A stretch of 60,480 bases of DNA, taken from an uncultured bacterium (lineage in GTDB: Bacteria; RBG-13-66-14). The notes under the pieces are model-generated. The model searched no databases, had not been told where the DNA came from, and saw only the letters and a list, made by a program, of their open reading frames with translations. Shown in pieces: positions 5,385 to 51,544 of the stretch. Each line of letters begins with the position of its first letter. The stretch's first letter is position 1. The translations under genes and the position numbers were made by a program. The stretch lies in the NCBI GenBank assembly GCA_964577465.1, contig CAZNZF010000001.1, positions 1-60,480 on the forward strand, written 5' to 3'.

Positions 5385-5386
5385 CG

Positions 5387-6826: not shown

Positions 6827-6834
6827 GAGCGGAC

Positions 6835-17983: not shown

Positions 17984-18645
17984 GCCTTGGGGAAGAGGGG
18001 CGGGAAGGGGTCCGAGCGGAGCTCCGGGGGGAGGTGCTCCCGGTCGTTGAACGAGGCGAGGTTCGGCTGCTCGCCCTGCCAGACGACCCGCGAGAAGCAC
18101 GCGTTGTCAAGGCGGAACCGGATCCAGCCGTCGAAGGGAATGCCCAGGACCCGGGCGAGGAAGTGGGAGAGTATACCCCCGTGGGCCGCGACGAGGGCCC
18201 GGTTCCACTCCCCGCCCAGAACCTTCTCCAGCGCAACCGAGGCCCGCTCGTAAACGTCCCGGCGGGACTCGCCCCCCGGGAAGCGGTACTCGCCCCGGCG
18301 GTACGTATCCGGGTCAATTCCGGGCAGGAAATGCGCGTGGAACTCAGCATAGGTCTGGTTGGCCGCCGTCCCCAGGTCGATTTCTTCCAGCTCGTCGATG
18401 ACCACGGAACGCGGTATCTGTACCCGAAGGGAAAGCCCCCGCTCGAATGCAGGGGCCAGGGTCGCCGCCACCCTCCCGGCCGGCGAAGTGTAAACGGCGT
18501 CGACGCCGAGATTCACCAGCACGTCGGTCAGAGCCAGGGCCTGCCGAACGCCGCGTGCGGAAAGGGGGTAATCCGTCCGACCCTGGAGGATACCCCGCTC
18601 GTTGGCCGTCGTCTCGGCGTGTCGAAGTAAATATAGCTCTTTCAA
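17980..18645 (-). CDS. Histidine phosphatase family protein (phosphoglycerate mutase/CobC-like)
   Basis: 221-aa ORF starting (TTG)KELYLLRHAETTAN, which is the RHG-type catalytic motif. A second His region reads VAAHGG. Confidence 0.85.
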   Translation of the reverse strand: MKELYLLRHAETTANERGILQGRTDYPLSARGVRQALALTDVLVNLGVDAVYTSPAGRVAATLAPAFERGLSLRVQIPRSVVIDELEEIDLGTAANQTYAEFHAHFLPGIDPDTYRRGEYRFPGGESRRDVYERASVALEKVLGGEWNRALVAAHGGILSHFLARVLGIPFDGWIRFRLDNACFSRVVWQGEQPNLASFNDREHLPPELRSDPFPPLFPKA

Positions 18646-22283: not shown

Positions 22284-23129
22284 TCACTCCACGGTGAAGG
22301 CCCCCGAGGCCGCCTCGGAGCCGTCGAGCTTCACCGTTATATTCCATTCGCCGGACTGCCACACGCCGGGCTCGGTGTAGCCCTTGCCGCCGATGACGCG
22401 CAGCGTGCCTTCACCGTCCGCGAAAACGGCGGAGCGCAGCTCCTCCCACCGCACCTCGCCGTCAGGGGCGGTCCAGACCACGGTGACCTCGTGGGCCTCC
22501 TCCGGGCCGCTCGACTCACGCGCGAGCTTCAGGACCCACACGACCATCTCGGTCTCGGCCAGGCCGAAGTGCGTCGCGGGGGAGGAATAATCGCCGTGGC
22601 GGTAGAAGTCGAGCGAGACGACCTCGGGCGGCCGAGTAGTCGGCTCCACCACCTCTACATCGACCGCTCCCGACTCGGCGCCTACGGCACCGGCCAGGGA
22701 TTTTGCCAGGTCCCGGCAGGCCCAGGGCAACTCGGCCGTCGTCCCCACGGTCACCGTTTCGCCCAGGACCGCCTCCGAAGATTCCACGTCCACCAGGCGG
22801 ACCGCCAGGGTGTACGTCTCGCCCAGGGCGGAGAGGGACCCCACGGCGATGTAGTCGGCGCCGGTCAGCGCGCCCAGCTCCGCGGCCTCGCCCGTCGTCA
22901 TGCCCGCCGCGGAGAGCGACCGCTCCTCCATAATCCGCGCCAGTTGCGCCCGCTCGATGACACGCACGTCGGGAAGCCCCACCAGCTCCGTGCGCAGAAT
23001 CTCCGCCACCGCCAGGGCCTGGTCGGGGAAGACGCCCAGCGGCTGGAAGTCGGTCACGGCCAGGGTTATCGGCTCCGCGGCGACCGTCAGCCCGGCGGCG
23101 AACAGAAGGAAAAGGGCCGCTCGGCGCAT
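22284..23129 (-). CDS. Secreted CsgG/LpoB/FlgO-like domain protein
   Basis: 281-aa ORF with a signal peptide. The N-domain (ITLAVTDF...LRTELV...VIERAQL..I..E...S..G) resembles the CsgG/LpoB-type fold. The C-terminal half was not recognised. Confidence 0.5.
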   Translation of the reverse strand: MRRAALFLLFAAGLTVAAEPITLAVTDFQPLGVFPDQALAVAEILRTELVGLPDVRVIERAQLARIMEERSLSAAGMTTGEAAELGALTGADYIAVGSLSALGETYTLAVRLVDVESSEAVLGETVTVGTTAELPWACRDLAKSLAGAVGAESGAVDVEVVEPTTRPPEVVSLDFYRHGDYSSPATHFGLAETEMVVWVLKLARESSGPEEAHEVTVVWTAPDGEVRWEELRSAVFADGEGTLRVIGGKGYTEPGVWQSGEWNITVKLDGSEAASGAFTVE

Positions 23130-32711: not shown

Positions 32712-33893
32712 CTACCGCTTCAGCATCCCGATGATTTCCGGGATGACCTCGTGGAGGTCGCCCACGATGCCGAAGTCGGCGTAGTTGAAAATCGGCGCCC
32801 GCGGGTCCCGGTTGATGGCCACGATGTGCTCCGCGGTTTTCATACCGGCCAGGTGCTGGACGGAGCCGGAGATGCCGCAGGCCACGTAGAGCTTGGGCCG
32901 GACGGTGCGGCCGGTCTGTCCCACCTGGTGGGGGTAGGGAATCCAGCCGGCGTCCACGGCGGCGCGGCTGGCCCCCACGGCGGCGCCCAGCGCCTCGGCC
33001 AGGTCGCGGATGAGCTTGAAATTTTCCGGCTTGCCCACCCCGCGCCCCCCGGAGACGATGACCCGCGCGTCGGCGATGTTGACCTCGGGCTCGGAGGCGA
33101 TGAAGCGCTTGAGGACCGCCTTGAGCTCCGCCTTGGACAGGGCCACGGTGTCCCGGACGAGCTGGCCCTCGTGGCCGGGCGTCGGGACGGGGGCGAAGAC
33201 CTTCGGGCGGACGGTGGCCATCTGGGGGCGGTGGTTCGGGGTGATGATGGTGGCCATGATGTTGCCGCCGAAGGCCGGCCGGGTCTGGAGGAGCCGCCGG
33301 TTCTCGCGGTCGATGGAAAGCCCGGTGCAGTCGGCGGTCAGGCCGGTGTGGAGTCGTGTGGCCAGCGCTCCGGCCCAGTCGCGGCCGTTGGCCGTGGCGC
33401 CGAAGAGGATGACTTCGGGACGGTGATACTCCACCACCTGGGCCGCCGCCTCGACGAAAGTGTCGTTCGAATAACGACCAAGGAGCGGGTGCTCGGCGAG
33501 GTGCACCACGTCGGCACCGTGGGCGATGAGCCCGTCCACCAGGTGCCCGACGTCGTCACCCAGCAGGAGCGCCGACAGCGGCACGTCCAGGTCGTCGGCC
33601 AGCTCCCGCCCCTTGCCGAGGAGCTCCAGGCTCACCGCGGCGACCTTCTTCGACTGCAGTTCCACCGCCACCCACACCCCGCGGTAATCTGCGAGGTCCA
33701 CCCCGCCGGCGGCGTCGGGGCGGTCGAGGATGATGGCCTCGACGGGGCAACTCTCGACGCAGGCGCCGCAGTCGGTGCAGCGCTCGTTCACCCGGGCCAG
33801 CTCCTCCACCATCTCGAGGGCGCCGAAGGGGCAGACCTTCACGCACGCGGCGCAGCCGATGCAGAGCCTCTCGGAGATGCGCAGGTACGGCAT
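32712..33893 (-). CDS. etfA: Electron transfer flavoprotein alpha subunit with an N-terminal 2x[4Fe-4S] ferredoxin domain
   Basis: ATG at 33893 overlaps the etfB TGA. The N-terminus has [12 protein letters not shown] and [12 protein letters not shown]; the C-terminal FAD motif reads [12 protein letters not shown]. Only the last 393 codons of track ORF 32712-34679 are taken. Confidence 0.88.
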
Positions 33894-34693
33894 CAGCTTT
33901 CCTTCAGGATGCGGTTGTCCTCGAGCCACTTGACGAAGATGGCGGCGGCCTCGCGGGCCGGGGCCTCCGTCATCTCCCCCCCGGAGGATACCGCAGAGGG
34001 GGTGAACACCCTTACCACCTGGGTGGGCGAGCCGGCCAGGCCGACCTCCTCCTCGCTCAAACCCAGTCTGTCGGCGTCCCAGACCGGAATCTCGGCGGTT
34101 TTGGCGCGACGGAGACCGCGCAGGCTGGGCAGCCGCGGCTCGTTGATGTCCTTGACCACGGAGACCACGGCCGGCAGCCGGGCCTCCAGCACCTCCCGCC
34201 CGTCCTCCAGCAGCCTCTGGACCTCTATTGCCCCGTCGTCGGGCCGGCCGATGCGGTCGATGTAGGTGAGCTGGGTCCAGCCGAGGCGCCGTGAGATACC
34301 GGGGCCGACCTGCCCCGTGTCGCCGTCTATGGCCTGCTTCCCGGCGAACACGAGGACCACCGCCGGTTCTAGCCGCTCTATGGCCCGGGCCAGGACGAAA
34401 CTGGTGGCCAGGGTGTCGGCTCCCGCGAAGGCGGGGTCGGACAGGAGCACCGCGTCGTCCACGCCCATGGCGATTGCGTCCCGGAGCACCGTCTCGGCCT
34501 GGGGAGGACCCATCGTCAGGGCGGTGACCTTGCCGCCGTAAGCGTCCCGGAGCTCGAGCGCCGCCTCCAGAGCGTAGAGGTCGAAGGGATTGGTGACGCT
34601 GGGCACACCCTCGCGGATGAGGGTGCCGCGCTTCGGGTCTATCCGGACCGTGGCGACGTCGGGGACCTGTTTGATGCAAACTACGTAATGCAT
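33893..34693 (-). CDS. etfB: Electron transfer flavoprotein beta subunit
   Basis: Start taken at MHYVVCIKQVPD (ATG at 34693), the canonical EtfB N-terminus. The upstream extension in the track ORF covers the repeat and promoter region. Confidence 0.9.
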   Translation of the reverse strand: MHYVVCIKQVPDVATVRIDPKRGTLIREGVPSVTNPFDLYALEAALELRDAYGGKVTALTMGPPQAETVLRDAIAMGVDDAVLLSDPAFAGADTLATSFVLARAIERLEPAVVLVFAGKQAIDGDTGQVGPGISRRLGWTQLTYIDRIGRPDDGAIEVQRLLEDGREVLEARLPAVVSVVKDINEPRLPSLRGLRRAKTAEIPVWDADRLGLSEEEVGLAGSPTQVVRVFTPSAVSSGGEMTEAPAREAAAIFVKWLEDNRILKES

Positions 34694-34754
34694 GTCAGGG
34701 CGTTCTGAAACCTTGTCTGATGGGGAAGTACGGCCGGCGGCATCGTCGGGAGTG

Positions 34755-34783
34755 ATAATAGCAGCGCCCCGGAAGCGGGTCAA
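34755..34783 (-). promoter_or_regulatory. Sigma70-type promoter for etfBA
   Basis: The minus strand reads TTGACC-N17-TATTAT, about 60 nt upstream of the etfB ATG. Confidence 0.45.
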
Positions 34784-34810
34784 GCCGCGCGGTGTAGGTT
34801 GCACCTCGCC

Positions 34811-34855
34811 GAACCGAGCGAACCGAGCGAACCGAGCTATGCCTTCGGCAAAACC
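34811..34855 (+). repeat. 9-mer tandem element, copy 2
   Basis: Three perfect copies of GAACCGAGC followed by TATGCCTTCGGCAAAACC. It sits between the divergent etf and EPS promoters. Confidence 0.7.
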
Positions 34856-34864
34856 GCCTGCATC

Positions 34865-34879
34865 TGGCACCGTTTTTGC
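34865..34879 (+). promoter_or_regulatory. Sigma54 (-24/-12) promoter upstream of the polysaccharide locus
   Basis: Exact TGGCAC-N5-TTGC (TGGCACcgtttTTGCg) in an intergenic region, oriented toward wza and about 270 nt upstream of it. A sigma54 EBP is encoded at 12111-13460. Confidence 0.65.
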
Positions 34880-35064
34880 GCACAACTACAATCACGGTCC
34901 GGCGCCCGGGAAAGCGCCACATTTTGTCACACCGGGAAACTTTTACGGCATCGCCGTGCCCGCCGGGGAGACGCCGCCCGGGATATTCACCAGCACGGTC
35001 TCGGACAGCCGATAACATGGGCTTTGGGAACGTCCCGCACGCGTGGCCGACCGCGTAGCACGCC

Positions 35065-35093
35065 TTGACCAGCCCCCATCCAAGGCGTATAAT
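35065..35093 (+). promoter_or_regulatory. Sigma70-type promoter proximal to wza
   Basis: TTGACC-N17-TATAAT lies about 45 nt upstream of the wza start. Confidence 0.5.
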
Positions 35094-35135
35094 CTCAACA
35101 AATAATGGAGGGGAAAACCCCGGGGACCATCGAAC

Positions 35136-35867
35136 GTGAACGCTGGAACGATGGGTCGAAAAATAACAGGCGTCGTCCTGCTGCTGCTGTCCGCCTGCCT
35201 GGCCGAGGCCGACGGGGAGCTCACCCTGGCCGACCGGTCCGTGGAGGTCGTGGAGGTCGAATACCCCACGCCCGAATTCATCGCCGAAACGACATACAGA
35301 ATCGGTGTGGACGACCTCCTGTCCATCACCATCGTCGGCCATCCCGAACTCTCCGGCTCTTACCACGTGGATCCCGAGGGGTATCTGAACCTCCCCTACC
35401 TGGAGGATTTCATCGCCGTGGGGTACACCCCCCACGAGCTGCGCAAGAAGCTGCTCGAGGAGTGGGCCCCCTATCTGGGCCACCCCCAGATAGGTCTCGA
35501 GGTCCAGGAGTATTCGAGCTGCAGGGTCTACGTGCTCGGCGAGGTGAAAGACCCCGGCCGCTACAACTACCGGGTGAGGCTGAGCCTGGTCGAGGCCCTG
35601 GCCGAAGCCAGCGGGTTCTGGGGCAATCCCGTGGAGAGCGAGGTAGCCATCATCCGTGTATTGCCGGACGTGACCCGCCTCTACCTGGTCGACGTGCGGG
35701 GCATCCTGGAGGAGGGTCGGGCGGCTCTCGACGTGCCGCTGGCCGCCGGGGACATCGTGTACGTCCCCCGCACTTTCATCGGCGACTGGAACGAATTCCT
35801 GAACAACATCGCCCCGACACTGCGCGCCGTATTCGACGCGAACCGACTTTACAACCTGAGCTGGTAG
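35136..35867 (+). CDS. wza: Polysaccharide export outer-membrane protein (Wza-like: Poly_export + SLBB)
   Basis: The 243-aa ORF has a signal/lipobox-like LLSAC, YRIGVDDLLSITIVGHPELSG (Poly_export motif), and SLBB-like RVYVLGEV..PG.Y and GDIVYVP. The start is GTG at 35136 or ATG at 35151. Confidence 0.85.
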   Translation: MNAGTMGRKITGVVLLLLSACLAEADGELTLADRSVEVVEVEYPTPEFIAETTYRIGVDDLLSITIVGHPELSGSYHVDPEGYLNLPYLEDFIAVGYTPHELRKKLLEEWAPYLGHPQIGLEVQEYSSCRVYVLGEVKDPGRYNYRVRLSLVEALAEASGFWGNPVESEVAIIRVLPDVTRLYLVDVRGILEEGRAALDVPLAAGDIVYVPRTFIGDWNEFLNNIAPTLRAVFDANRLYNLSW

Positions 35868-35868
35868 A

Positions 35869-38244
35869 GTGGAACAACCGACCAACCCAGGCCGTGGACG
35901 CGGCGCACCCAAGGTATCCGAATACCTCCTCGTACTGCGGAAGCGGAAGTGGATAATCATTTTCGCCGTGCTGATCTCGCTCACGATCGCCACCTACCAA
36001 TCCTACACAACTCCCCCGACCTACGTGGCGACGGCGTCCCTGGTTCTCGAGGCCTCGGGGCAGAACACCGATTTCCTGCAGGGCTTTTACTCGGCCTTCC
36101 AGCCGTTTCGCCTGGAGACCGAGCTCCAGATCATCTCGAGCCGTTCCATCTGCCTGGGCGTGGTCGAGCGGCTGAACCTCGCCTTCCATCCCCAGGAACA
36201 GCTCCCCGACGGCGTATTCTTCCAGGATCCCTTCGTCGAAGTAGGCTTCCCCGTCGGCCGGTACAGGGTGATCGAGAGCGAGACCGGCTTCTCGGTTCTC
36301 GACGACGCGCAAGACGCCATCGGTGAAGGTCTCTACGACCAGCCCTTCGTGTCGAACGACGGGCTTTTCGGCTTCACCCTCCACGACCCCGAGCCCCACC
36401 CCAAGCGAATCATCAGCATCAAGGCGACCAACCCCATCCAGGAAGCCGAGAGCATCCGCCATTCCATCAGCGTACAACAGGCCAGCGACTCAAACGCGTT
36501 CACCGTGAGCGTTTCCCATACGGACCCGAAGATGGTGGCCAGGCTGGCGAACACCGTCGCCGAGGTCTATGTGGATGAGAATCTTCGCTGGAAACAGGAG
36601 CGCGCCCGTAAGGCCCGAGAGTTCATCGGGCAGCAGATCGAGGTGGCCGAGGTCAAGCTGCGGCTGACCGAGGATCTCCTCAGGGAGTACAAGGAAGAGC
36701 TGGGCATCGTGTCCTTCACCGATGAGGCGAGGGAGATGATTAACCGCCTGAGCAACACCGAGGAGAGCAAGAGCAACCTGGAACGGGACCTCGCCGAGCT
36801 GGAGGGACAGAAAAGAACCGTCGAGAACTACCTGAATCGAGGCGAGATAGACCTCGACACGCTGATGGCCATCAGTTCCTGGCCCACGTTCCAAACTGAC
36901 CAGTTGTTGAGGGATTTCGTCCGGACGGCCGGGGAGCTCACGGTCGAAAAGCAGCAGCTGAAACAAACCTCCGGTCATCTAAACCCCAGGCTGGACGAGA
37001 TCGATGGAGAGCTGGACGCCCTCGAAAATGACATTGAGAATCGGCTCTCCTACATCATCGACTCCGGCGCCCTCGGCATCTCCATAGAAGGCGTCAAATC
37101 CAAGATCGAGGAAACGTCGAGCACCATCTCCGTGCTCACTTCGGAGCTCTCCATCATGCCGCGGGAGGAAATGGAGCTCTCCATCCGGGAGAGAAAGAGC
37201 GACGTCGCGTCGAAAATCCACTCGCTACTCCTCGAACGGTACGAGGAGGCCCGCATCAACGAGAGCATGGAAACGGGCGACGTCCGCATCATCGACCGGG
37301 CGATACGACCCGTGGGGCCGGTAAGCCCCAACCATGTTTCGGACCTTCTCCTCGGCCTGGCCATCGGCCTCATCATCGGAATCGGCCTGGCCATGATCGT
37401 CGAGATGAACGACACGACGGTGAAATCGGCCGATGAGGTTACGAACCTGACCGGGCTAACGCTGATCGGCACAATACCGAAAGCGACCGAGGAGTTCGAG
37501 GACCTCGGCAAGGGTCATCTGACAGTTTTAGAAAATCCCCGTTCCCCCATCGCGGAAACGTACCGCATCATCCGCACGAATATCCAATACTTCAGCATCG
37601 ACAAGCAGATCCGCGTCCTGTCCATTACGAGCCCCAGCAAGGGTGAAGGGAAGACAACGACCGCGGCGAACCTGGGCGTGTCCATCGCCCAGCAGGGTCA
37701 TAAAACCCTGTTGGTGGACACCGATCTGCGCAAGGCGAAGATGCACCGCTTCTTCAACATCCCCAACACCCCCGGCTTTACCGAGCTCATCCTCGGGGAC
37801 AGGACCGACGAGGAGGTCATCCGATCCACCCGTGTCGAAAACCTCTTCGTCCTCCCCTCGGGGCACCCGCCGCCCAATCCCTCCGAGCTCCTGTCCAGCC
37901 GCCGGACACAGGATATCCTCGAACGATTCCGCCAGGAGTACGACAAGGTGATCCTGGATACCTCCCCCGTCCTGGCGGTAACCGACCCCGCAATCCTGGG
38001 GACCCTGGTCGACGGAACCATCCTCATCGTCGAATCCGAGGTGAGCGAGGCCGAGGCCGTCAAGGAAGCGGTGAACCTCTTGAAAAACGCGCGGGCTCAG
38101 ATACTGGGCTTCGTTTTAAACAAAGTGGATCTCACCCGAACGTACAGATCGCACAGGTACTACCACTACTACTACTACCACGACGACGACGAGGCGGAGC
38201 GGTCCAAAGGTTCGATTTGGAAACGTTTCCGGGGCAAAAAGTAA
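35869..38244 (+). CDS. wzc: Polysaccharide co-polymerase / BY-family tyrosine autokinase (Wzc/GumC-like)
   Basis: Features of the 791-aa ORF:
- a Wzz-type N-domain with two TM helices and a long coiled-coil;
- Walker A SPSKGEGKTTTAANLG, Walker A' LLVDTDLRK and Walker B VILDTSP;
- a C-terminal Tyr cluster YRSHRYYHYYYYH. Confidence 0.88.
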   Translation: MEQPTNPGRGRGAPKVSEYLLVLRKRKWIIIFAVLISLTIATYQSYTTPPTYVATASLVLEASGQNTDFLQGFYSAFQPFRLETELQIISSRSICLGVVERLNLAFHPQEQLPDGVFFQDPFVEVGFPVGRYRVIESETGFSVLDDAQDAIGEGLYDQPFVSNDGLFGFTLHDPEPHPKRIISIKATNPIQEAESIRHSISVQQASDSNAFTVSVSHTDPKMVARLANTVAEVYVDENLRWKQERARKAREFIGQQIEVAEVKLRLTEDLLREYKEELGIVSFTDEAREMINRLSNTEESKSNLERDLAELEGQKRTVENYLNRGEIDLDTLMAISSWPTFQTDQLLRDFVRTAGELTVEKQQLKQTSGHLNPRLDEIDGELDALENDIENRLSYIIDSGALGISIEGVKSKIEETSSTISVLTSELSIMPREEMELSIRERKSDVASKIHSLLLERYEEARINESMETGDVRIIDRAIRPVGPVSPNHVSDLLLGLAIGLIIGIGLAMIVEMNDTTVKSADEVTNLTGLTLIGTIPKATEEFEDLGKGHLTVLENPRSPIAETYRIIRTNIQYFSIDKQIRVLSITSPSKGEGKTTTAANLGVSIAQQGHKTLLVDTDLRKAKMHRFFNIPNTPGFTELILGDRTDEEVIRSTRVENLFVLPSGHPPPNPSELLSSRRTQDILERFRQEYDKVILDTSPVLAVTDPAILGTLVDGTILIVESEVSEAEAVKEAVNLLKNARAQILGFVLNKVDLTRTYRSHRYYHYYYYHDDDEAERSKGSIWKRFRGKK

Positions 38245-39215
38245 CCCTATTCACCGCGCTGACGAGTCGAGATCCCAGCGATCTGGCTCGTCATATTATG
38301 GAGACGCCGGACGCCCTTGAATGGCTGAGGGAGGAGCGGCTCGCCCCGCTGGCGGATTGGAGGCTGGGCGGCGGGAGTTTGGCACAGGGCTTGCAAAAAG
38401 AAGTTCGTGCCTCCCTGAAGGAACAAAGGCGTCGAGAGGCTCGCTGGGAGTTGGTCCAAACCGCTCCGCTCCTGGACCTTCTGGCGGAAACGGCGACTCT
38501 GCAACCGCTGGCCCTCAAGGGGTTGGATTTCCGCGCACGGCTGTACCCACCCGCCACCAGGCCGGCGTCGGACATCGACATTTACGTAGAACGCGGGAAG
38601 ATGGGCCGGTTCGCCGAGGCGGCGGAAAAAACGGGCTGGAGGCTGGACACCCGGGGGAGGCTGGGGCGCAGGCTCTGGCGGCGTTGGAACCATCTCATCT
38701 GGGGCAAGGATCAGACCGTTCTGGAAGTTCACTACGCCCTCACGGCACCCGGGAGGTACAACGAGGATTTCAGGTTCGGGGAAAATCCCACCCCCCTGGA
38801 CCTGCACGGAGTAACGCTCTGGGTGCCATCCAGGGAGGACGCGACGCTCTTCTGCCTGGTCCACCTCTGCGGGAACCACTTCTTCGATTCACACCTCCTG
38901 TCGGTTTACGACATCTGGATGTTGTGTCCCGGCCTCGATTGGGGTAAACTCTACGCGAGTGCGCGCAAGGCGGGATTGGAACGGACGGTCTGTTTCGCGG
39001 TTGCATATCTGAGAGGCTACCCGACGCTGAGGGGGCTCGTCCCGCCCGGGGAACCGCTCCGGCCGGGTCGATTCGGGAAGGGATTCTTCGAAAAGAAACA
39101 TAAAAGGGTCCGGGCACGGTCCAGGCTGCTGGGGCTCTACCTCGCGGATCCGCCGATACGCTCTCTGACCTACGTTCTCGGCCACCTCGGCGAAAGGCTC
39201 GACATCTTCCGATGA
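38217..39215 (+). CDS. PF14907-like 'uncharacterised nucleotidyltransferase' family protein
   Basis: The 332-aa ORF has ...PLALKGLDFRARLYP....RPASDIDIYV.. matching the KG...R..xDiDllV core of NTP_transf_5. The TTG start at 38217 overlaps wzc by 28 nt and the start is uncertain (an ATG lies at 38298). Its stop overlaps the PqqD ATG (ATGA). Confidence 0.65.
   Translation: METFPGQKVTLFTALTSRDPSDLARHIMETPDALEWLREERLAPLADWRLGGGSLAQGLQKEVRASLKEQRRREARWELVQTAPLLDLLAETATLQPLALKGLDFRARLYPPATRPASDIDIYVERGKMGRFAEAAEKTGWRLDTRGRLGRRLWRRWNHLIWGKDQTVLEVHYALTAPGRYNEDFRFGENPTPLDLHGVTLWVPSREDATLFCLVHLCGNHFFDSHLLSVYDIWMLCPGLDWGKLYASARKAGLERTVCFAVAYLRGYPTLRGLVPPGEPLRPGRFGKGFFEKKHKRVRARSRLLGLYLADPPIRSLTYVLGHLGERLDIFR
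38380..38395 (+). promoter_or_regulatory. Exact sigma54 -24/-12 motif inside the nucleotidyltransferase ORF
   Basis: TGGCAC-N5-TTGCA (TGGCACagggcTTGCA), oriented toward the PqqD, radical SAM and peptide genes. It is intragenic, so function is unproven. Confidence 0.35.
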
Positions 39216-39496
39216 AAACGTACGATCCCGACGCGGTGCCCGTGAAAACGGGGCGGATACCCTCCCAGGAAGTGGATGGCGAGATATTCGCCATCACCCC
39301 CGAAGACGGGATGCTCCACAATTTCAACGAGGTCGGGAGCTTCATCTGGAATCTGATCGACGGGAAACGCAGCCTCGCCGACATCGAAGGCTCAATCATC
39401 GCGGAGTACGACGTGGAATCGAACCAGCTCAGGAACGATCTGACGACGTTCTTCAAGGCGCTCGGTGAAAAGGGTTTGGTGGGATACAAACGCTGA
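39212..39496 (+). CDS. PqqD-family peptide chaperone (RiPP recognition element)
   Basis: 94-aa ORF with the PqqD pattern ....QEVDGEIFAI.PEDGMLHNFNEVGSFIWNLIDGKRSL.DI...I..EYDV......NDL..F...L...GLV. Confidence 0.8.
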   Translation: MKTYDPDAVPVKTGRIPSQEVDGEIFAITPEDGMLHNFNEVGSFIWNLIDGKRSLADIEGSIIAEYDVESNQLRNDLTTFFKALGEKGLVGYKR

Positions 39497-39534
39497 CCTA
39501 CACCGCGCGATTCGTAAAGGCGGCTCTCGGCAGA

Positions 39535-40659
39535 ATGAACGACGGGGCCACAGAACCGAAAACCTTCGCGAAGCTCCGCTGGAAAACCTTCCAACGTCAT
39601 ATCCCCTACCTCGTCACCCTCGAGTTGACCTACCGCTGCAACCTCCGGTGCACTCACTGTTACCTGACGCCGGACGACCCCCACCGGGAGGAGATGCCGG
39701 TCGAGGACTGGCTCCGGACCATCCGCGAACTCACCGACCTGGGGGCGTTCTACGTGACCGTCACCGGTGGTGAACCGACTCTGTACCCGGGATTCTGGGA
39801 CATCCTGGAGGAGCTGCAACGGCGGGAAGCGGTGGTCCGCGTCTTCACCAACGCCACGACCCTGACCGGGGAGGATGTGGACCGCCTGGTCATGTGCGGG
39901 GTCCGCTACGTGGACATCTCCCTCCACGGACCCGACGCCGCTACGCACGAGGCCGTGACCCGCACTCCCGGCAGCTTCGACGCAACGGTTGCGGCGGTAA
40001 AAAGGCTCCGGGCCGCCGGGGTATTCGTCAATCTCAAGGGCAGTCTTTTAAAGTCGAATTACAGCGTGGTCAACGAGCTGGACCGGTACATGCTGTCGTT
40101 AGGAGGCCGCCCGCTCCTGAACATGAACATCACCCCGGCCAACGACGGCGGCACGGGACCGCTCGAAAAGGCGCTCGGTGCCGAGGAGCACTGCTTTATT
40201 CTCGATAACTACGAACGCTTGCGAAATGAACCACCGGATGGCGAGCCCCCGGAGAAAACGGAATGGCTGAGGGTCTTTCACGCCGTTTCCTGCACCGCCG
40301 GCTTCTCGACCCTGTCCGTCACACCCGACGGCGAGGTGTTTCCCTGCTTGCAATTGCGCGCCTCGATGGGAAACGTCCGGCGGAGCACATTGAGGAAAAT
40401 ATGGCATCATTCTCCACTTAACCTCTATCTGACTGGTATGTTCACACTCCCGATACCTGACTGCCGGGATTGTGAGCTTGCCTATGGTTGCATGCGCTGC
40501 CCCGGCCTGGCCCTCATCGAAACCGGCAGCCTCTGGAGGTCCTCGCCCAGCACCTGTCAGATGGCGCGCAATTACACATCAGCCCACACCAAACACCTTA
40601 CACGAGAAGGAAACGGAAATGAGCAAGAAGACTTACACATCGCCCAGCCTGACAAGTGA
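39535..40659 (+). CDS. Radical SAM / SPASM-domain peptide-modifying enzyme
   Basis: The 374-aa ORF has the CxxxCxxC motif in YRCNLRCTHCY and a GGEP motif (VTGGEPTL). The C-terminal SPASM Cys clusters are CTAG....V.PDGEVFPC and CRDCELAYGCMRCPG. Confidence 0.88.
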   Translation: MNDGATEPKTFAKLRWKTFQRHIPYLVTLELTYRCNLRCTHCYLTPDDPHREEMPVEDWLRTIRELTDLGAFYVTVTGGEPTLYPGFWDILEELQRREAVVRVFTNATTLTGEDVDRLVMCGVRYVDISLHGPDAATHEAVTRTPGSFDATVAAVKRLRAAGVFVNLKGSLLKSNYSVVNELDRYMLSLGGRPLLNMNITPANDGGTGPLEKALGAEEHCFILDNYERLRNEPPDGEPPEKTEWLRVFHAVSCTAGFSTLSVTPDGEVFPCLQLRASMGNVRRSTLRKIWHHSPLNLYLTGMFTLPIPDCRDCELAYGCMRCPGLALIETGSLWRSSPSTCQMARNYTSAHTKHLTREGNGNEQEDLHIAQPDK

Positions 40660-40795
40660 AAGAATCTTTCAGGAATCATCGGCGAGGTGTCTGTATGATA
40701 TTCAGGGTTCCGTAACAACTTGTAAGAAGAAAACGGGAGCGTGCTCATACAGCACTATTGAGGGTTATTGCACTATCTGGCCCTTCGATTCCTAG
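40619..40795 (+). CDS. Candidate RiPP precursor peptide (58 aa, 4 Cys)
   Basis: ATG at 40619 with GAAGGA 9-14 nt upstream. It overlaps the radical SAM 3' end by 41 nt. Sequence: MSKKTYTSPSLTSERIFQESSARCLYDIQGSVTTCKKKTGACSYSTIEGYCTIWPFDS. The stretch is AT-rich compared with its surroundings. It is visible only as the tail of track ORF 40472-40795. Confidence 0.55.
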   Translation: MSKKTYTSPSLTSERIFQESSARCLYDIQGSVTTCKKKTGACSYSTIEGYCTIWPFDS

Positions 40796-40907
40796 CGGGG
40801 GGATTGGACGCATTGGGGCGAATCAGGGCACTACCAGATCCCTTTAAACCAGAGAGGGCTGGATTAACCGAGACCTGAAAGCCGGGCTCATAGCGGAAGC
40901 GCTGCGC

Positions 40908-41339
40908 GTGAGCGGTCCCCGATGGGTGAAGAGCCGTGGCCGATGCCACGGTGAATTGATACCCGAGGGGGACGAGCTACTCCTGGAGCCCTTCGGGGAA
41001 ACGCCCCCGCGGGTCGGCGAGATAGCGGCCTATATAAATCCCGACGGCCTCGAGGTCGTCCACCGCCTCTGCCACCGGGACACCGACGGCTGGTGGGGCA
41101 ACGCGGACACGGTGCTGGCGATGGAGCGCACCGGAAGCCTTATAGGCCGCGTCACGGCCCGGCGGTGGAAGGGCTCCGTCCGCGCCGTGAGGCCGATGCC
41201 CGCGCGGGCCGGGCTGGCCTGGCTCATCCACCGGCTCTACCGACACTCCCACGGCCTTTTAGGAGCCTGGGGGCGGGTTGTCCTGCAACTTGTACAGCGG
41301 CTCAAACCACTGCTCTACCACACCCGACAGGGAATATGA
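40908..41339 (+). CDS. S24/S26 (LexA/signal peptidase)-fold protein with Cys at the nucleophile position
   Basis: The 143-aa ORF starts with GTG. VKSRGRCHGELIPEGDELLL, GEIAAY, EVVHRL, WWGNAD and SLIGRV align by eye to the V.G.SM.P.l..GD.v.v / GDIv.f / v.HRv / KGDn / i.G.v blocks of S24/S26 peptidases. Its stop overlaps the next gene's ATG (ATGA). Confidence 0.35.
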   Translation: MSGPRWVKSRGRCHGELIPEGDELLLEPFGETPPRVGEIAAYINPDGLEVVHRLCHRDTDGWWGNADTVLAMERTGSLIGRVTARRWKGSVRAVRPMPARAGLAWLIHRLYRHSHGLLGAWGRVVLQLVQRLKPLLYHTRQGI

Positions 41340-42658
41340 ACCACAACGAACCGGCAAAGAGACTGAAAGAAGGCCCGGCGGTCTTCGGCGTCATCGGCCT
41401 GGGCTACGTGGGGCTGCCCCTCGCCCTGGAGTTCGCCGAGGCCGGCATCCGCGTCATCGGCTTCGACATCGACCCGTCGAAGGTGGAATCCCTGCAAAAA
41501 GGCGAGAGTTACATCCAGCAGATACCGGCCGGGCGGATCAAGCCGTACGTGGACTCGGGCATTTTCGAGGCGACCGGCGACCTGGACCGCCTGGGCGAGG
41601 TCGACGTCATCGCCATCTGCGTGCCCACGCCGCTGGACGACCACCGGCAGCCGGACCTGAGCTTCGTTGAAATCACGTCCCGGGACGTGGCCCGTCGGCT
41701 GAAGAAGGGGCAGGTGGTGATTCTCGAGTCCACCACCTATCCCGGCACCACCCGGGAGGTCGTCCGGCCCATCCTCGAGGAGGGATCGGGCCTCAAAGGC
41801 GGGACGGACTTCTTCCTCGCCTTCTCCCCGGAGCGGGAGGACCCGGGCAACAAGGACTACCGGACCCGGACGATTCCCAAGGTCATCGGCGCGCTGACTC
41901 CGGCGGGGCTGGACCTGGCCAAAAATTTCTACGACCGGGTCTTCGAGAGGACGGTCCCGGTGTCCAGCCTCGAGGTGTCCGAGATGACGAAAATCTTCGA
42001 GAACACCTTCCGGGCCGTGAACATCGCCCTGGTCAACGAGCTGAAGATGCTGGCGCTGCGCATGGGGGTCAACCTGCACGAGGTGATAGACGCCGCCTCG
42101 ACGAAGCCCTTCGGGTTCATGCCCTTCCGCCCGGGGCCGGGCCTCGGGGGGCACTGCATCCCCATCGACCCCTTCTACCTCACCTGGAAGGCCCACGAGT
42201 ACGAGTTCAGCACCCGCTTCATCGAGCTGGCCGGCGAGATAAACACGGGGATGCCCCGTTTCGTGGTGGAACGCACCACCGAGGCGCTCAACCACGCGGG
42301 CAAGCCGCTCCGGGGCTCGAAAATTTTAATCCTCGGCATATCCTACAAACCCGACATCGACGATATGCGCGAAAGCCCGGCCGTGCCGGTCATGGAGGGC
42401 CTGCTCGCGCGTGGGGCGAAGGTGGACTACCACGACCCGCACATCCCCAAGATGCCCGCCACGCGCCAGACCGGACTGCGCCTGGAGAGCATCCCCCTGA
42501 AGGATTACTCCGTGCTCGCGGCCTACGACGCCGTGATCGTCGTGACCAACCATTCCTCATACGATTACCGGGAGGTGGTCCGACGCGCGGCCCTGGTGGT
42601 GGACACGCGGAACGCCACCGCGGGGATACCGAACGATGGGAACGTGTGGCTGGCCTGA
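41336..42658 (+). CDS. Nucleotide-sugar dehydrogenase (UDP-GlcNAc/ManNAc dehydrogenase-like; UDPG_MGDP_dh family)
   Basis: ATG at 41336. The 440-aa product has the Rossmann motif VIGLGYVGLPLA and the catalytic Cys context GGHCIPIDP. Confidence 0.88.
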   Translation: MNHNEPAKRLKEGPAVFGVIGLGYVGLPLALEFAEAGIRVIGFDIDPSKVESLQKGESYIQQIPAGRIKPYVDSGIFEATGDLDRLGEVDVIAICVPTPLDDHRQPDLSFVEITSRDVARRLKKGQVVILESTTYPGTTREVVRPILEEGSGLKGGTDFFLAFSPEREDPGNKDYRTRTIPKVIGALTPAGLDLAKNFYDRVFERTVPVSSLEVSEMTKIFENTFRAVNIALVNELKMLALRMGVNLHEVIDAASTKPFGFMPFRPGPGLGGHCIPIDPFYLTWKAHEYEFSTRFIELAGEINTGMPRFVVERTTEALNHAGKPLRGSKILILGISYKPDIDDMRESPAVPVMEGLLARGAKVDYHDPHIPKMPATRQTGLRLESIPLKDYSVLAAYDAVIVVTNHSSYDYREVVRRAALVVDTRNATAGIPNDGNVWLA

Positions 42659-48171: not shown

Positions 48172-49716
48172 TTGCCCACGGGTAAAGTCAAGGCGAGCCG
48201 CCTCTGGAGCGACACGTTCTGGATGTCCGCCGCCGGTCTTTTCAGCGCCGGCCTGAGCATCCTGCGCGCCCTCCTCCTGCCGAAAATCATCGACAATCCG
48301 GCGAACTACGGGCTGCTCCTCGTCATCAGCCTCATAATTGGATACGGAGCCTACGCCCATCTCGGCGTGACGCTGGGCATCTATCGCCAGATTCCGTACC
48401 TGCGGGGGACGGGGACCTCGGAAGAGGAAATCGCCGACCTGCGCAACTCCTCCCTGGGCTTCGTGCTCCTGATGGGGTTCGTGGCCGTCATCGTCTCCTT
48501 CCTCCTCGGCTGGACCCAGATAGAAGACGGCACCCTCCTCGGATTCGTCATCCTCGCCGCGGGAGCGGCCCTGGTTCCCCTGCGGAATCTGACGGCTGTT
48601 TTGACGAACTTCTACCAGGCCGAGGGGCGGTTCCGCTTCCTGGCCATCCTGGAGTTCTTCTACATCCTGTCGTCCGTCGGACTCACACTTCTCGGGGCCC
48701 AGCTCTTCGGGATTCTCGGCGTCGCCGGGGCCATTATAATCGTGGAAATCGTATTCGTAGTCCTCTACAGCCGACTGACCGGTTATCCCCATCGGTTGCG
48801 GTTGGTTCCCCGCCTCGACTGGGCGAAAGTCGGCCGGCTGATACGCGTCGGACTGCCGCTGACCATCGTCGTATTCCTCCGCTTCTGCCTGGAGAGCATC
48901 GACAAGCTGTTCATCGCCCGTTTCATCGGCGGGGTGGATCGTGGGTTCTTGAACCTGGCGGCCACCGTGGGGATGCTCGTCATCCTGGTTCCGGGCAAGC
49001 TCGGTATCGTTCTCAACCCGGAACTGGCGCGGAGCACCGGCGCCGGTGAAATCGGCGAGCTCCGGCGTCGCCTGACGAGCTATACCGAGGCGACCGCTTA
49101 CATAGGCGCCCTGTTGGCCGGGCTGGCTGTCATAGGCTCCAGGACGGTTCTGGCGGCATGGCTGCCGAATTACGCCCCGTCTCTGGCTCTCATAGACCTC
49201 TACGCGCCCCGGATGGCCTTCTACGCCATCATAACCATCGCCGGGAACACCCTGATCAACCTCCTCATCGACCGCCGGCGCGTCGGGCTGTGGATCGGAA
49301 TGCAGCTCGGCATCCTGCTCCTGGCCGTCTCGGCCTGCACCCTGGCACTGTTCCGTTTCGGCTCAAGCTGGTCCATCGTGCTGGCGAGCACCGGCGTCAT
49401 TATCGCAAACGCCCTCCTCATCAACTACTTCGCCGCGAAAGAGGTGGGGATGAAGCTGGGGGAGCGGCTGGGCTTCCTTTTACGACTCGTCCTGCCTCTG
49501 GGCTACGTCGGCGCGCTGGTGGAGGGGTTGAAGTTCGGCCTCACCTACATCGAGCACTGGTCGACTTTAATGCGCCTGCTTACCGGAACGGGCGCCTTAA
49601 TCGTCCTCGCACTGCCCCTGGTAATTCACGGCGAGCGCCGTCTGGGGCTGTTTAAAATGCTGAGGACCCGGATCCGTGAACGCCTCATTCAACCCCGCGG
49701 TGAGCTCGATGATTAG
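48172..49716 (+). CDS. wzx: Polysaccharide flippase (Wzx-like, MOP superfamily)
   Basis: 514-aa ORF with about 12-14 TM segments. The N-terminal pattern ...W.....L.......L..P.I......YGL is typical of Wzx. The start is uncertain (TTG at 48172). Confidence 0.75.
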   Translation: MPTGKVKASRLWSDTFWMSAAGLFSAGLSILRALLLPKIIDNPANYGLLLVISLIIGYGAYAHLGVTLGIYRQIPYLRGTGTSEEEIADLRNSSLGFVLLMGFVAVIVSFLLGWTQIEDGTLLGFVILAAGAALVPLRNLTAVLTNFYQAEGRFRFLAILEFFYILSSVGLTLLGAQLFGILGVAGAIIIVEIVFVVLYSRLTGYPHRLRLVPRLDWAKVGRLIRVGLPLTIVVFLRFCLESIDKLFIARFIGGVDRGFLNLAATVGMLVILVPGKLGIVLNPELARSTGAGEIGELRRRLTSYTEATAYIGALLAGLAVIGSRTVLAAWLPNYAPSLALIDLYAPRMAFYAIITIAGNTLINLLIDRRRVGLWIGMQLGILLLAVSACTLALFRFGSSWSIVLASTGVIIANALLINYFAAKEVGMKLGERLGFLLRLVLPLGYVGALVEGLKFGLTYIEHWSTLMRLLTGTGALIVLALPLVIHGERRLGLFKMLRTRIRERLIQPRGELDD

Positions 49717-51544
49717 GGCGCCATCCCTTCTAGGTCTGGCCGGTCATGTCGCCCCGAAGGCGCTCGAGCGGGAGTTTGACCGTCAGAGGCGCTTGAATCG
49801 CGAACCGACGGTGACCAACCTCCTACCCGGTGTGCTCGGCGAGTCGTTGTTGAAGGTCTGCCGGGACTCCGGCGTAGCCGTGACGACCTCCGAGGCGCTC
49901 CTGGGGCGGGAGGGAATCCGGCGGGTCGACGCCGAGGCCAAAGAGCTCACCGACCGCGTTTTCGAGGCCATCGGTCGGGACGACTTGACGCGGGTCATCT
50001 GGCACCTCTTCTATTGGTACCGTCTGCGCCGGGCGTGCCTGGGCGCCGCGATTCTGGACTCGGCGCTGACGGAAGGCTGTTACGCGGCGACCCTTCTGGG
50101 TGGGGAAGAGGTCCTGGCCGGGGTTCTCGACGAGGTATGCCGGCGGAGGGACGTCCGCTTCAATGCACCCGGCGCCGCCCCCGCCTCCTTCACCCGCCGC
50201 CTGCGAATCTTCAGGATCGGTTCGGAACGGCGCATCCCCCTGAACGAGGGACTGGCCCGGGGGCTCACCCTGGCGTCGTCGCTCCTGCGTCCCGTGGGCG
50301 GGAAGGGGAGCCCCGCACCCCTGGATGGCCTGATCCTTACGACCCTTCCCTCCGAGAAGGCGACCTGGCGGCCTATTCTGGACGGGATTCCCGAAGGGGT
50401 GCGTTTCGGGCTGGTGGCGACGTACCGGGTGGACCCCCGCGATCTTCCCCCCGCCGTCCGCCGTTACAGCCTCGACGCGTGGCTCCTGCCGAAACGCATC
50501 GGCGAATGGATCAGGACCGACCGGGATTACCGGAGTATCGGCCCCCAGTTGCCCCGCATCCTGCCCCACCTGCCGTGGAGGGGGCTGGACCTGGGAGAAT
50601 TCGCACGGTGTACGCTGGCGAGCGTAATTCCACAGCTCTTCTGGAAGTTGATTCCCCGGGCTGCGGCTCTCGAGGGGTTGATCGAGGCGGTGAAACCGAG
50701 GGTGCTGGTCTGCCTGACGGAGCGCAACGAGCTCGTCAACCTGGCCTTCCGGATGGCCGCCGAGAGAGGGATTCCCACCCTGGCGATAGAATCCCACGAC
50801 ATGATCTGGGACTCGCCGCTCTTCGGACGCCTGGAGGCGGACAGGCTGGCGGTGAGCGGGACGTACTCGGAGAGCATCTACGTCAGAAACGGGGTCCCCC
50901 GGGAGAAGATTACCGTCACCGGCCAACCTTCCTTTGACGGGCTGGCCCGGTACCGTGGGAAACAACACGTAAACAGAGAGGCCGATGAACGCCTGCTGGT
51001 CGTCATCACCCAGCCGCCCGACGTCGCGCTCACCGAGGATACGCGCCGGGAGATGCTGCGGGGGGCGCTCCTCGCCGGCAGGGAGATACAGCGGCTTCGG
51101 GTTTTAATCAAACCGCACCCCCGGGACGACCTTGGCGACCTGCGCCTGATTTTGAGCGAGCTCGGGGCGCCCCGGGACGCGCTCCTGCCGAAAAAGCTCG
51201 ATTTGTACGGCCTGCTCGCCTCCGCGGACGTCATCCTCACGGCCTTCTCCACCGTGGGCGTGGAGGCGATCATGCTGGGGCGGCCGGTGGTGGTCTTCAA
51301 GACCGGTGAAGGGTCCTCGGTGCTGCCCTACGTGGATTCGGAGGCGGTTCTCCGGGCCGAGGACGCGGGGCGGACGGCGGAGATGATAAAACGGGTAATC
51401 GAAGGCGAAGTCGTCCATGAGCTGGCCCAGGGTCGCAAAGCCTACATCGCCGACCACGAGTGCGCGGCGGACGGTGACTGTGCGGCCAGGGTAGTCCGGC
51501 TCATCCTCGAAATGCTGAACGGGGAAGGCCGTGCGGGGATATAG
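49709..51544 (+). CDS. GT-B-fold transferase, TagF/KpsS-like (KPHP motif)
   Basis: The C-terminal half reads ...LLVVITQPPD....LRVLIKPHPRD....ASADVILTAFSTVGVEAIMLGRPVVVF, like glycerophosphotransferase or capsule-synthesis GT-B enzymes. The N-terminal half was not recognised. The start is ATG at 49709, or 49676 in the track. Confidence 0.5.
   Translation: MIRAPSLLGLAGHVAPKALEREFDRQRRLNREPTVTNLLPGVLGESLLKVCRDSGVAVTTSEALLGREGIRRVDAEAKELTDRVFEAIGRDDLTRVIWHLFYWYRLRRACLGAAILDSALTEGCYAATLLGGEEVLAGVLDEVCRRRDVRFNAPGAAPASFTRRLRIFRIGSERRIPLNEGLARGLTLASSLLRPVGGKGSPAPLDGLILTTLPSEKATWRPILDGIPEGVRFGLVATYRVDPRDLPPAVRRYSLDAWLLPKRIGEWIRTDRDYRSIGPQLPRILPHLPWRGLDLGEFARCTLASVIPQLFWKLIPRAAALEGLIEAVKPRVLVCLTERNELVNLAFRMAAERGIPTLAIESHDMIWDSPLFGRLEADRLAVSGTYSESIYVRNGVPREKITVTGQPSFDGLARYRGKQHVNREADERLLVVITQPPDVALTEDTRREMLRGALLAGREIQRLRVLIKPHPRDDLGDLRLILSELGAPRDALLPKKLDLYGLLASADVILTAFSTVGVEAIMLGRPVVVFKTGEGSSVLPYVDSEAVLRAEDAGRTAEMIKRVIEGEVVHELAQGRKAYIADHECAADGDCAARVVRLILEMLNGEGRAGI

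Follow-up and report, generated by a model that had tools for sequence, protein, structure and literature searches.

The DNA analyzed here, a 60,480-nucleotide stretch from an uncultured bacterium (GenBank GCA_964577465.1, contig CAZNZF010000001.1, positions 1 to 60,480; hereafter the window), carries five co-directional plus-strand open reading frames (ORFs), tightly packed or overlapping, at 38217-41339 between a wzc-type gene and a gene for a nucleotide-sugar dehydrogenase. This interval is probably a biosynthetic cassette for a peptide that is made on the ribosome and modified after translation (RiPP), transcribed as part of a wza-wzc polysaccharide operon, with a proposed pathway of four steps. 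In general design it is a RiPP system of known type, built around PqqD and a radical S-adenosylmethionine (rSAM)/SPASM enzyme. Three things about it are unusual: its recurrent integration, in different phyla, into Wza/Wzc operons, Ser-ending precursors tied to HprK-like and PF14907 proteins, and a Sec11/SipW-like predicted peptidase with a Ser-to-Cys replacement. A preliminary description of this DNA had proposed a RiPP-type maturation cassette within, and translationally coupled to, the Wza/Wzc operon, and all tests that we ran support that proposal. The five ORFs it listed were found on the plus strand together with their overlaps and ATGA junctions:

38217..39215, plus strand: PF14907 nucleotidyltransferase-fold protein (PF14907, E=6e-31)
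39212..39496, plus strand: stand-alone PqqD-family protein (PF05402, E=4.9e-16)
39535..40659, plus strand: PqqE-like rSAM/SPASM enzyme (PF04055, E=1.8e-27; SPASM PF13186, E=4.1e-11)
40619..40795, plus strand: precursor peptide of 58 residues, with leader MSKKTYTSPSLTSERIFQESS..., a four-Cys core and a C-terminal Ser (homologous small ORFs)
40863..41339, plus strand: S24/S26-fold (Sec11/SipW-like) predicted leader peptidase (profile search, AlphaFold/Foldseek)

Pfam hidden Markov model (HMM) scans returned the same assignments as the preliminary description for the first three proteins (PF14907, PF05402, PF04055 and PF13186). Its other two assignments, a Cys-rich peptide and an S24/S26-fold protein, were not recovered by direct HMM scans but were confirmed through conservation in ~35 loci, profile searches and AlphaFold/Foldseek comparisons.

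The 58-residue ORF is, judging by its conserved leader, hypervariable core and fixed Cys residues, a genuine RiPP precursor. Its gene overlaps the 3′ end of the rSAM gene by 41 nucleotides, and the encoded peptide ends in ...WPFDS. The ORF has no Pfam or NCBIfam match, and comparison of the precursors with NCBIfam yielded nothing beyond one marginal match of an Elusimicrobia homologue to SCIFF (E=0.06). Nonetheless, a small ORF lies beside the rSAM gene in about 35 related loci from more than ten phyla, and conservation of this ORF in homologous neighbourhoods, on which the preliminary description had staked its reading, was borne out; all related loci that could be read have such a homologue after the rSAM gene. 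A regular-expression scan of 89 loci (numbered with the prefix L below) detected the leader motif [KR][KR]xYxxPx[LVIM] in 31 small ORFs, 26 of which directly adjoin the rSAM gene on the same strand; later loci contributed 11 more. Peptides encoded beside rSAM genes of 79%, 56%, 41% and 38% identity begin with MSKKSYTPPSL, MSKKSYTRPRV, MKKKSYQKPKL and (MN)KHKKKYDKPQL, respectively. In an alignment of 22 precursors, Y6, P9, C24 and C35 are invariant and the final position holds Ser in 20 sequences, Thr in 2 and Asp in 1 (the display misaligns one Ser), while all additional Coatesbacteria-type peptides also end in Ser. Outside the rSAM overlap, most leader differences among close relatives fall on synonymous third positions; over 12 codons, the window and L002 differ by four synonymous changes and one replacement. 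Nucleotide identity is lowest, for the operon as a whole, in the core-peptide region and the spacer that follows (40692-40871), 48-50% as compared with 75-90% for the enzymes and 75-85% for the rSAM gene. A hairpin across the precursor stop codon was no more stable than shuffled sequence (z=-0.47).

Immediately upstream, the rSAM and PqqD proteins have the properties of a peptide-modifying pair. The CxxxCxxC cysteines of the rSAM enzyme (C35, C39 and C42) are invariant in a 12-sequence alignment, as are SPASM cysteines C253, C271, C310, C313, C319 and C322, with C341 present in at least 90% of the sequences; seven downstream Cys are as expected for two auxiliary Fe-S clusters. The nearest relatives in the PDB are the peptide maturases SkfB (1.6e-20) and PqqE (3.3e-17), followed by cytosylglucuronate decarboxylase (7vob, E=2e-12). 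Identity as an anaerobic sulfatase maturase, which the preliminary description had named as a possible outcome adverse to its reading, was rejected, as no such structure appears among the PDB matches at E≤1e-3. The best NCBIfam match is ScmE, at 115.3 bits against a cut-off of 400, and ScmF scores 86.6 bits. No RiPP recognition element (RRE) is fused to the enzyme. The stand-alone PqqD protein is the predicted leader-binding (RRE) chaperone; its gene lies 38 nucleotides upstream of the rSAM gene, a pairing kept in 29 of 30 cassette loci listed. Its best NCBIfam matches, the lasso PqqD chaperone, ScmD and GeoRSP PqqD, each score ~40 bits, below the cut-offs.

A stand-alone PqqD next to an rSAM/SPASM enzyme of ~370 residues is also the architecture of PqqD/PqqE and MftB/MftC, which raises the alternative that the cassette makes a small peptide-derived cofactor in the manner of pyrroloquinoline quinone (PQQ) or mycofactocin, a few residues such as the C-terminal Ser and its neighbours being used by sugar-modifying enzymes. 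MftC and PqqE indeed rank among the best NCBIfam and PDB matches, the C-terminal residue of the precursors is conserved, and mycofactocin, which is made from the C terminus of its precursor and is glycosylated, offers a precedent. However, scores fall far below the PqqE and MftC family cut-offs, no candidate for a cofactor-dependent oxidoreductase is conserved beside the cassette, and what is conserved in the precursors is two to four Cys over 25-40 hypervariable residues rather than a fixed C-terminal di- or tripeptide. A cofactor is therefore a very improbable product, and we retain the interpretation of a modified Cys-rich peptide.

The first gene of the cassette encodes the PF14907 nucleotidyltransferase. 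Translation starts from a TTG codon 28 nucleotides inside the 3′ end of wzc, and the stop codon shares an ATGA with the PqqD start. A 45-nucleotide segment that includes the wzc overlap is 96% identical among relatives, as expected for dual coding. Residues G102, R115, D119 and D121 of the hG...DxD motif are invariant in 14 cassette-associated homologues. The protein belongs to no NCBIfam family, and a profile of 14 diverse cassette nucleotidyltransferases had no significant match in the PDB (best E=1.1). An AlphaFold model based on ten close homologues was poor (mean predicted local distance difference test score, pLDDT, 48.8) and was not used for a fold search. Word-indexed homologue searches with this protein, as with the S24-like protein, returned close relatives only.

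The S24-like protein of the window likewise has no direct Pfam or NCBIfam match, so its assignment draws on profiles and a structural model. Searched against 1.84 billion representative proteins, its profile matched only five clusters at E<1e-10, and the family is accordingly narrow; among 35 more distant profile matches that were scanned, 27 contain Pfam Peptidase_S24 (PF00717) and 8 contain Peptidase_S26. The AlphaFold model (pLDDT 77.5) found as its top Foldseek matches the lambda cI C-terminal domain, human SEC11, signal peptidase I, SipA and LexA, with weak E-values, from 6.5e-3; the entries 2ho0, 7p2q, 1f39, 1t7d and 3jso lead the list, with probabilities of 0.92-1.0. On the model for archaeal-type signal peptidase I (cut-off 51.85), S24 homologues encoded in other cassettes reach 39-47 bits.

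Alignment of 33 cassette S24 domains revealed how the window protein departs from its relatives. The column of the nucleophile holds Ser, within a G-x-S-M-x-P motif, in 26 of the 33 domains and Cys in the remaining 7, whereas the His of the Sec11/SipW-type HR motif (His52-Arg53 in the window) is present in all 33. In the window and all Coatesbacteria-type homologues the nucleophile position is occupied by Cys13 within G-R-C-H-G-E, and the G-x-S-M-x-P motif is absent. A second, independent Ser-to-Cys replacement occurs in L029 (4785-5222, Acidobacteriota), where the sequence reads G-R-C-M-E-P and the rest of the motif is intact. A metagenome scan with the S24-like alignment retrieved nine close loci only, which shows the Cys-type protein to be lineage-restricted. 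The gene is the most conserved of the cassette, with a nucleotide identity of 0.88-0.95 (40917-41141), and is accordingly functional. The protein may work as a Cys/His peptidase.

The preliminary description had the stop codon of this gene right, including the ATGA shared with the dehydrogenase gene, but probably not the start. From the first canonical start codon, GTG at 40908, the ORF spans 40908-41339 and encodes 143 residues. Three of four close relatives lack that GTG. The in-frame codons upstream of it, by contrast, are conserved and encode the N-terminal helix of homologues that have canonical starts. A Shine-Dalgarno-like AGAGGG, followed after 4 nucleotides by ATT at 40863 (ATC in one relative), is arranged identically in all five sequences. 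Given the absence of the GTG from relatives and the conservation of both the upstream codons and the Shine-Dalgarno-like site, translation probably starts at ATT 40863. Such a non-AUG start may keep expression of the S24-like protein low.

Among named organisms, the closest relatives of the window are Candidatus Coatesbacteria. Cassettes were found from 88% down to 38% rSAM identity, with the order wza-wzc-nucleotidyltransferase-PqqD-rSAM-small ORF-S24 in L001-L005, L090 and L091. The preliminary description had asked whether the set always sits between wzc and sugar genes: it follows wza-wzc in these seven loci, but sugar genes are absent from L090, and in L006 the series nucleotidyltransferase-ScmC-PqqD-rSAM-small ORF-S24 stands at the end of a different glycosyltransferase/Wzy/WecA locus. 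A scan of species-representative genomes with the rSAM sequence gave at least 80 loci, with relatives at 24-33% identity, and thus a cross-phylum sample with built-in controls; no Coatesbacteria genome is among the 80 species-level matches listed. Screening of six-frame ORFs from these 80 loci against HMMs built from the loci in hand identified 30 that carry the cassette. They represent Omnitrophota, Elusimicrobiota, Planctomycetota, Nitrospirota, Thermodesulfobacteriota, Acidobacteriota, Chloroflexota, Verrucomicrobiota, Clostridia, Actinomycetota and others.

Composition of the 30 listed cassettes pointed to an additional enzyme. PqqD and a ScmC-like protein are each encoded in 29 and the S24 protein in 24; 13 include PF14907, and 10 have several rSAM genes. 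In NCBIfam, the ScmC-like proteins match the HPr(Ser) kinase model and those named HprK-related kinase A/B (1e-5 to 1e-8), and their profile finds PEPCK along with two HprK structures, 1jb1 and 2qmh (1.8e-6). These matches identify the ScmC-like protein as a P-loop kinase of the HprK-like kind. Only L074 of the 30 species-level loci listed, on a contig that ends at the cassette edge, lacks the kinase as the window does. The window cassette is a lineage-restricted, kinase-less variant, probably of Candidatus Coatesbacteria. In the wider, uncharacterized family, PqqD and an HprK-like kinase accompany an S24 peptidase and one to three rSAM/SPASM enzymes, and GNAT and PF14907 domains may be present or not. 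Larger cassettes with three rSAM/SPASM genes occur in L020, L024, L057 and L059 (Nitrospiraceae), L039 and L075; there, the precursor gene lies between the second rSAM gene and the HprK-like kinase gene, and the peptides have longer Gly/Ser-rich tails that end in Ser.

Gene fusions also connect components of the family, PF14907 being often joined to the peptidase. S24-nucleotidyltransferase (L052), S24-GNAT-nucleotidyltransferase (L016), S24-GNAT (L021) and nucleotidyltransferase-S24 (P0146/L092) proteins place PF14907 and the S24 peptidase in one pathway in several lineages, and the GNAT fusions would fit leader removal followed by N-acetylation. These fusions bear on a further alternative, in which the polysaccharide or nucleotide sugars, not a peptide, are the substrates of the rSAM and PF14907 enzymes, and the small ORF and PqqD are incidental. 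Some SPASM/twitch rSAM enzymes do act on sugars, the decarboxylase 7vob being such a match, and the cassette is placed among sugar genes. But PF14907 is fused to the peptidase in several lineages, and PqqD and the leader-bearing small ORF accompany the rSAM gene across phyla, in many loci without sugar genes, which makes this alternative scarcely credible beside a peptide substrate.

The cassette of the window is flanked by the following features:

35065..35093, plus strand: sigma-70-like promoter match (TTGACC-17-TATAAT, 11/12), a consensus match only, 5′ of wza
35136..35867, plus strand: wza-type outer-membrane polysaccharide export protein (Poly_export E=4.6e-16 plus SLBB domains)
35869..38244, plus strand: wzc-type chain-length determinant/bacterial tyrosine kinase (BY-kinase; Wzz, GNVR and AAA_31 domains)
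41336..42658, plus strand: nucleotide-sugar dehydrogenase (TIGR03026, 427 bits against a cut-off of 190)

The wzc product scores 200 bits on TIGR01007 (cut-off 108) and carries a Tyr-rich C-terminal tail, RYYHYYYYH; wza lies immediately 5′ of wzc in every Coatesbacteria-type locus. The promoter-like site upstream of wza is the single one and, as a consensus match, marks the probable start of the operon. No terminator-like site above chance level was found between it and 42000, leaving the cassette without an internal terminator. At the downstream boundary, the dehydrogenase gene is the first of the sugar pathway, and its ATG at 41336 shares an ATGA with the preceding stop codon, an arrangement by which it is translationally coupled to the cassette. 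Further 3′ are neuA/neuB/neuC-type genes, a methyltransferase, a DegT aminotransferase, wzx, a large putative glycosyltransferase, GT4 enzymes and wzy. Domain and family scans thus agree with the preliminary description on wza, wzc, the dehydrogenase, the neuABC-type genes, wzx, wzy and glycosyltransferases.

Comparison with other loci indicates that the connection of the cassette is to wza and wzc. Divergent etfBA, wza, wzc and the nucleotidyltransferase, PqqD, rSAM, precursor and S24 genes form a block that is kept in Coatesbacteria-type loci down to 41% rSAM identity. In L090 (1-20471; ENA ERZ27247998 k141_451069), etfBA, wza, wzc and the full cassette are retained with no sugar genes downstream, which identifies wza-wzc, and not the sugar pathway, as the tight partner. 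The nucleotidyltransferase gene overlaps the wzc stop codon in the window, L001-L003, L090, L091 and L092, the last of which encodes wzi-wza-wzc, a nucleotidyltransferase-S24 gene overlapping the wzc stop, ScmC, PqqD, rSAM and a 55-residue precursor ORF. The cassette of L052 (Omnitrophota) is situated between wza and wzc, and wzc and/or wza occur within a few kilobases in L010, L023, L033, L053 and L054. Overall, the association extends to Coatesbacteria-type loci, Omnitrophota, Nitrospirota, Chloroflexota and Clostridia, plus L092.

Quantitatively, wza/wzc genes are present in 6 of 30 cassette loci versus 0 of 50 non-cassette rSAM loci (Fisher p=0.002, 80 loci listed), and polysaccharide genes lie near 8 of 13 PF14907-positive versus 2 of 17 PF14907-negative cassettes (p=0.007, 30 loci listed), counts that are tempered by a limited phmmer query set for polysaccharide genes, many short contigs and the non-independence of related species. 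These data bear on the alternative of a self-contained RiPP cluster, for example antimicrobial or signalling, that merely landed in an exopolysaccharide (EPS) operon or uses its promoter with no functional tie to Wza/Wzc. Such a cluster would account for the 24 of 30 listed cassettes without wza/wzc in the available DNA, for cassettes in unrelated contexts such as beside the C25 peptidase/cohesin genes of L008, and for a hypervariable core typical of diversifying selection, as in bacteriocins. It would not explain why the wza/wzc association recurs across lineages and is absent from the 50 control loci, why the cassette is positioned so exactly (overlapping the wzc stop or, in L052, lying between wza and wzc), why L090 retains wza-wzc and the cassette without sugar genes, or why PF14907 co-varies with nearby polysaccharide genes. 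We consider a self-contained cluster unlikely. A functional connection to polysaccharide export is reasonably likely, though not obligatory for the family, and the product probably works in concert with the exported polysaccharide or with the machinery that exports it.

Among described systems, the closest to the cassette is SynChlorMet (ScmC-ScmF, TIGR04248-TIGR04251), which is defined by computation only and likewise combines a PqqD homologue with a PqqE-like rSAM/SPASM enzyme. Distant relatives of the window cassette carry a gene that Pfam labels ScmC. However, the window fails every curated cut-off, with its PqqD at 39.7 versus 100 bits for ScmD and its rSAM at 115.3 versus 400 bits for ScmE. 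SynChlorMet includes an ScmE/ScmF pair plus ScmC, whereas the window encodes one rSAM of this type and has no ScmC-like match in 60 kb. Lacking ScmC and a second rSAM as well as sufficient scores, the window cassette is not a SynChlorMet member. In addition, it contains the PF14907 and S24-fold proteins, has an identified precursor family and sits in an EPS operon; the precursor of SynChlorMet is reportedly not identified.

A second comparison is with the tailoring of Firmicutes lasso peptides, which involves an HprK-like kinase, PsmN and the PqqD-like B1. In paeninodin and pseudomycoidin biosynthesis, the precursor's C-terminal Ser receives a phosphate from an HprK-like kinase (PMC6993621; PMC11912497). 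Attachment of one or two hexoses to this phosphate then requires PsmN, an uncharacterized nucleotidyltransferase, and depends on its two Asp (PMC6993621; PMC11912497). Ser-ending precursors are common to both systems, the wider cassette family also has an HprK-like kinase and PF14907, and the best NCBIfam match of the window PqqD is a Bacillus-type lasso chaperone; the window itself has no kinase. The statement in the preliminary description that PF14907 and PqqD proteins occur near EPS loci and in lasso clusters fits both the loci and the lasso literature that we found. Lasso peptides depend on a cyclase, whereas the core modifying enzyme of the window cassette is an rSAM/SPASM protein. Neither an asparagine-synthetase-like lasso cyclase, the absence of which had been noted before, nor a B2 protease was detected among the window ORFs scanned with Pfam.

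Sactipeptides and ranthipeptides (SkfB, AlbA, CteB, PapB and SCIFF) share with the window a Cys-rich core and an rSAM/SPASM enzyme, SkfB being the closest solved relative, and the leader KKxYxxPxL presumably resembles the leaders of the freyrasin and thermocellin precursors. In contrast to those maturases, in which the RRE is an N-terminal domain, the window has a separate PqqD as its RRE. Scores of the window rSAM on the curated models are far too low for membership (85 versus 625 for StsB, 80 versus 300 for SkfB, and others likewise far below), and the pathway differs further in its PF14907 and S24 steps and its near-invariant C-terminal Ser; its thioethers are predicted. For the S24-like protein, the relevant comparison is with Sec11/SipW/archaeal-type (S26B) signal peptidases and LexA/cI-type S24 proteins, to which it corresponds in fold, profile and the HR His. 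Unlike these peptidases, it has no N-terminal membrane anchor, places Cys at the nucleophile position and matches no curated model directly; it is probably cytoplasmic.

A full-text literature search, with most subscription journals outside its reach, located no description of the cassette, its precursors or its association with EPS genes, and the RiPP and rSAM surveys consulted mention no kinase, nucleotidyltransferase or polysaccharide context. The earlier impression that no system of this composition has been characterized agrees with the literature searched.

Together, the family assignments suggest a pathway of four steps. Stand-alone PqqD would first bind the precursor through its leader, KKxYxxPxL...F, and then hand it to the rSAM/SPASM enzyme for cross-linking of the core Cys. 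Since no core residues other than Cys are conserved, the products of this step are most likely thioethers of the sactipeptide or ranthipeptide type. By analogy to PsmN, the PF14907 enzyme may next add a nucleotidyl or sugar-phosphate-type group, most plausibly on the C-terminal Ser. Phospho-type tailoring at this residue is expected from the combination, within the family, of a Ser-ending precursor, an HprK-like kinase and a PF14907 protein with an invariant DxD. Without a kinase in the window, the nucleotidyltransferase would have to transfer a nucleotidyl or sugar-phosphate group directly to the Ser hydroxyl, or else use a different substrate, and this is the weakest step. Finally, the S24/S26-fold protein would cut off the leader with a Cys/His pair in place of Ser/His.

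Several observations weigh against this pathway. The HprK-like kinase, present in 29 of the 30 listed cassettes, is absent from the 60-kb window, so the analogy to phosphoserine tailoring by PsmN is incomplete here; moreover, membership of PsmN in PF14907 is presumed. The DxD pair of the window enzyme, D119/D121, is invariant. Chemistry of the rSAM enzyme is not readable from its sequence, and on NCBIfam models it scores about as well for the non-peptide enzymes AhbD and NirJ as for peptide maturases. With Ser replaced by Cys and the SMxP motif lost, the S24-like protein might be no peptidase, and its Foldseek matches include a catalytically altered homologue, S. pyogenes SipA. Wza/Wzc genes are nearby in only a minority of cassette loci, and among the genes of the window we identified no exporter or immunity gene for the cassette. 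Modification of the peptide is itself a prediction.

The preliminary description had offered co-export, nucleotidylylation and a part as primer or regulator as candidate roles. A more specific proposal for the product is that the mature peptide is physically coupled to the polysaccharide pathway: with a nucleotidyl or sugar-phosphate group placed on its C-terminal Ser by the PF14907 enzyme, it would prime, cap or anchor the Wzx/Wzy polymer, or be a cargo or allosteric partner of Wza-Wzc. This proposal is speculative, and we judge it quite unlikely; if true, it would mean a peptide-linked exopolysaccharide or RiPP-controlled capsule export across several phyla.

The usual view of RiPP cassettes is that they are self-standing clusters for antibiotics or signals, whereas the one in the window is translationally coupled to Wza/Wzc. 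Related cassettes adjoin the same export genes in several unrelated phyla, with at least five other lineages having a cassette of this family beside Wza/Wzc, which makes an unstudied link between a modified peptide and capsule or EPS export likely. Novel rSAM RiPP cassettes are common, and it is the recurrent association with an export operon that sets this family apart. For a widespread cassette that resembles the computationally defined SynChlorMet, the leader motif and near-invariant C-terminal Ser define the missing precursor family. The connection to the kinase and nucleotidyltransferase tailoring of lasso peptides offers a testable substrate for the uncharacterized PF14907 family, and the S24-like protein presents a natural Ser-to-Cys switch in a Sec11/SipW-type peptidase under strong purifying selection. 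On kinase loss, Ser-ending precursors, the Cys nucleophile and the recurrent Wza/Wzc link across phyla, the preliminary description was silent.

Additional features of the operon and its surroundings were noted. The G+C content falls to 0.568 in 40001-41000, compared with 0.62-0.66 on each side, and an Rfam search of 34600-42000 detected no RNA family. The etfB/etfA pair at 32712-34885 (minus strand) is divergent from wza, with EtfA fused to a ferredoxin domain, and its position is kept in all Coatesbacteria-type loci (L001-L004, L090 and L091). In L090, the 3′ genes encode DNA-alkylation-repair, HypF and AsmA/TamB proteins, and a 58-residue ORF with a signal-peptide-like N terminus lies just after the S24-like gene. 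Scanned ORFs of the window operon (35136-56349) and scanned upstream ORFs include no initiating phosphoglycosyltransferase (Bac_transf or Glycos_transf_4), the gene for which may be located elsewhere in the genome; a WecA-like gene adjoins the cassette in L006 and L089. A 622-residue protein encoded between wzx and a GT4 gene (49676-51544), whose C-terminal half is weakly Epimerase_2- and Glyphos_transf-like, may be a nonulosonate or capsule-polymerase-type transferase.

Farther from the operon, the window encodes a large signalling protein with adenylate/guanylate cyclase, AAA_16 and TPR domains (7859-11242) and a sigma-54-dependent response regulator (12111-13460), near which lie long ORFs without a Pfam match (5329-7857, 13649-15094 and 16392-18350). 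A CsgG-like protein of the curli secretion channel family (22284-23129, minus strand, E=3.3e-8) represents another surface-structure gene.

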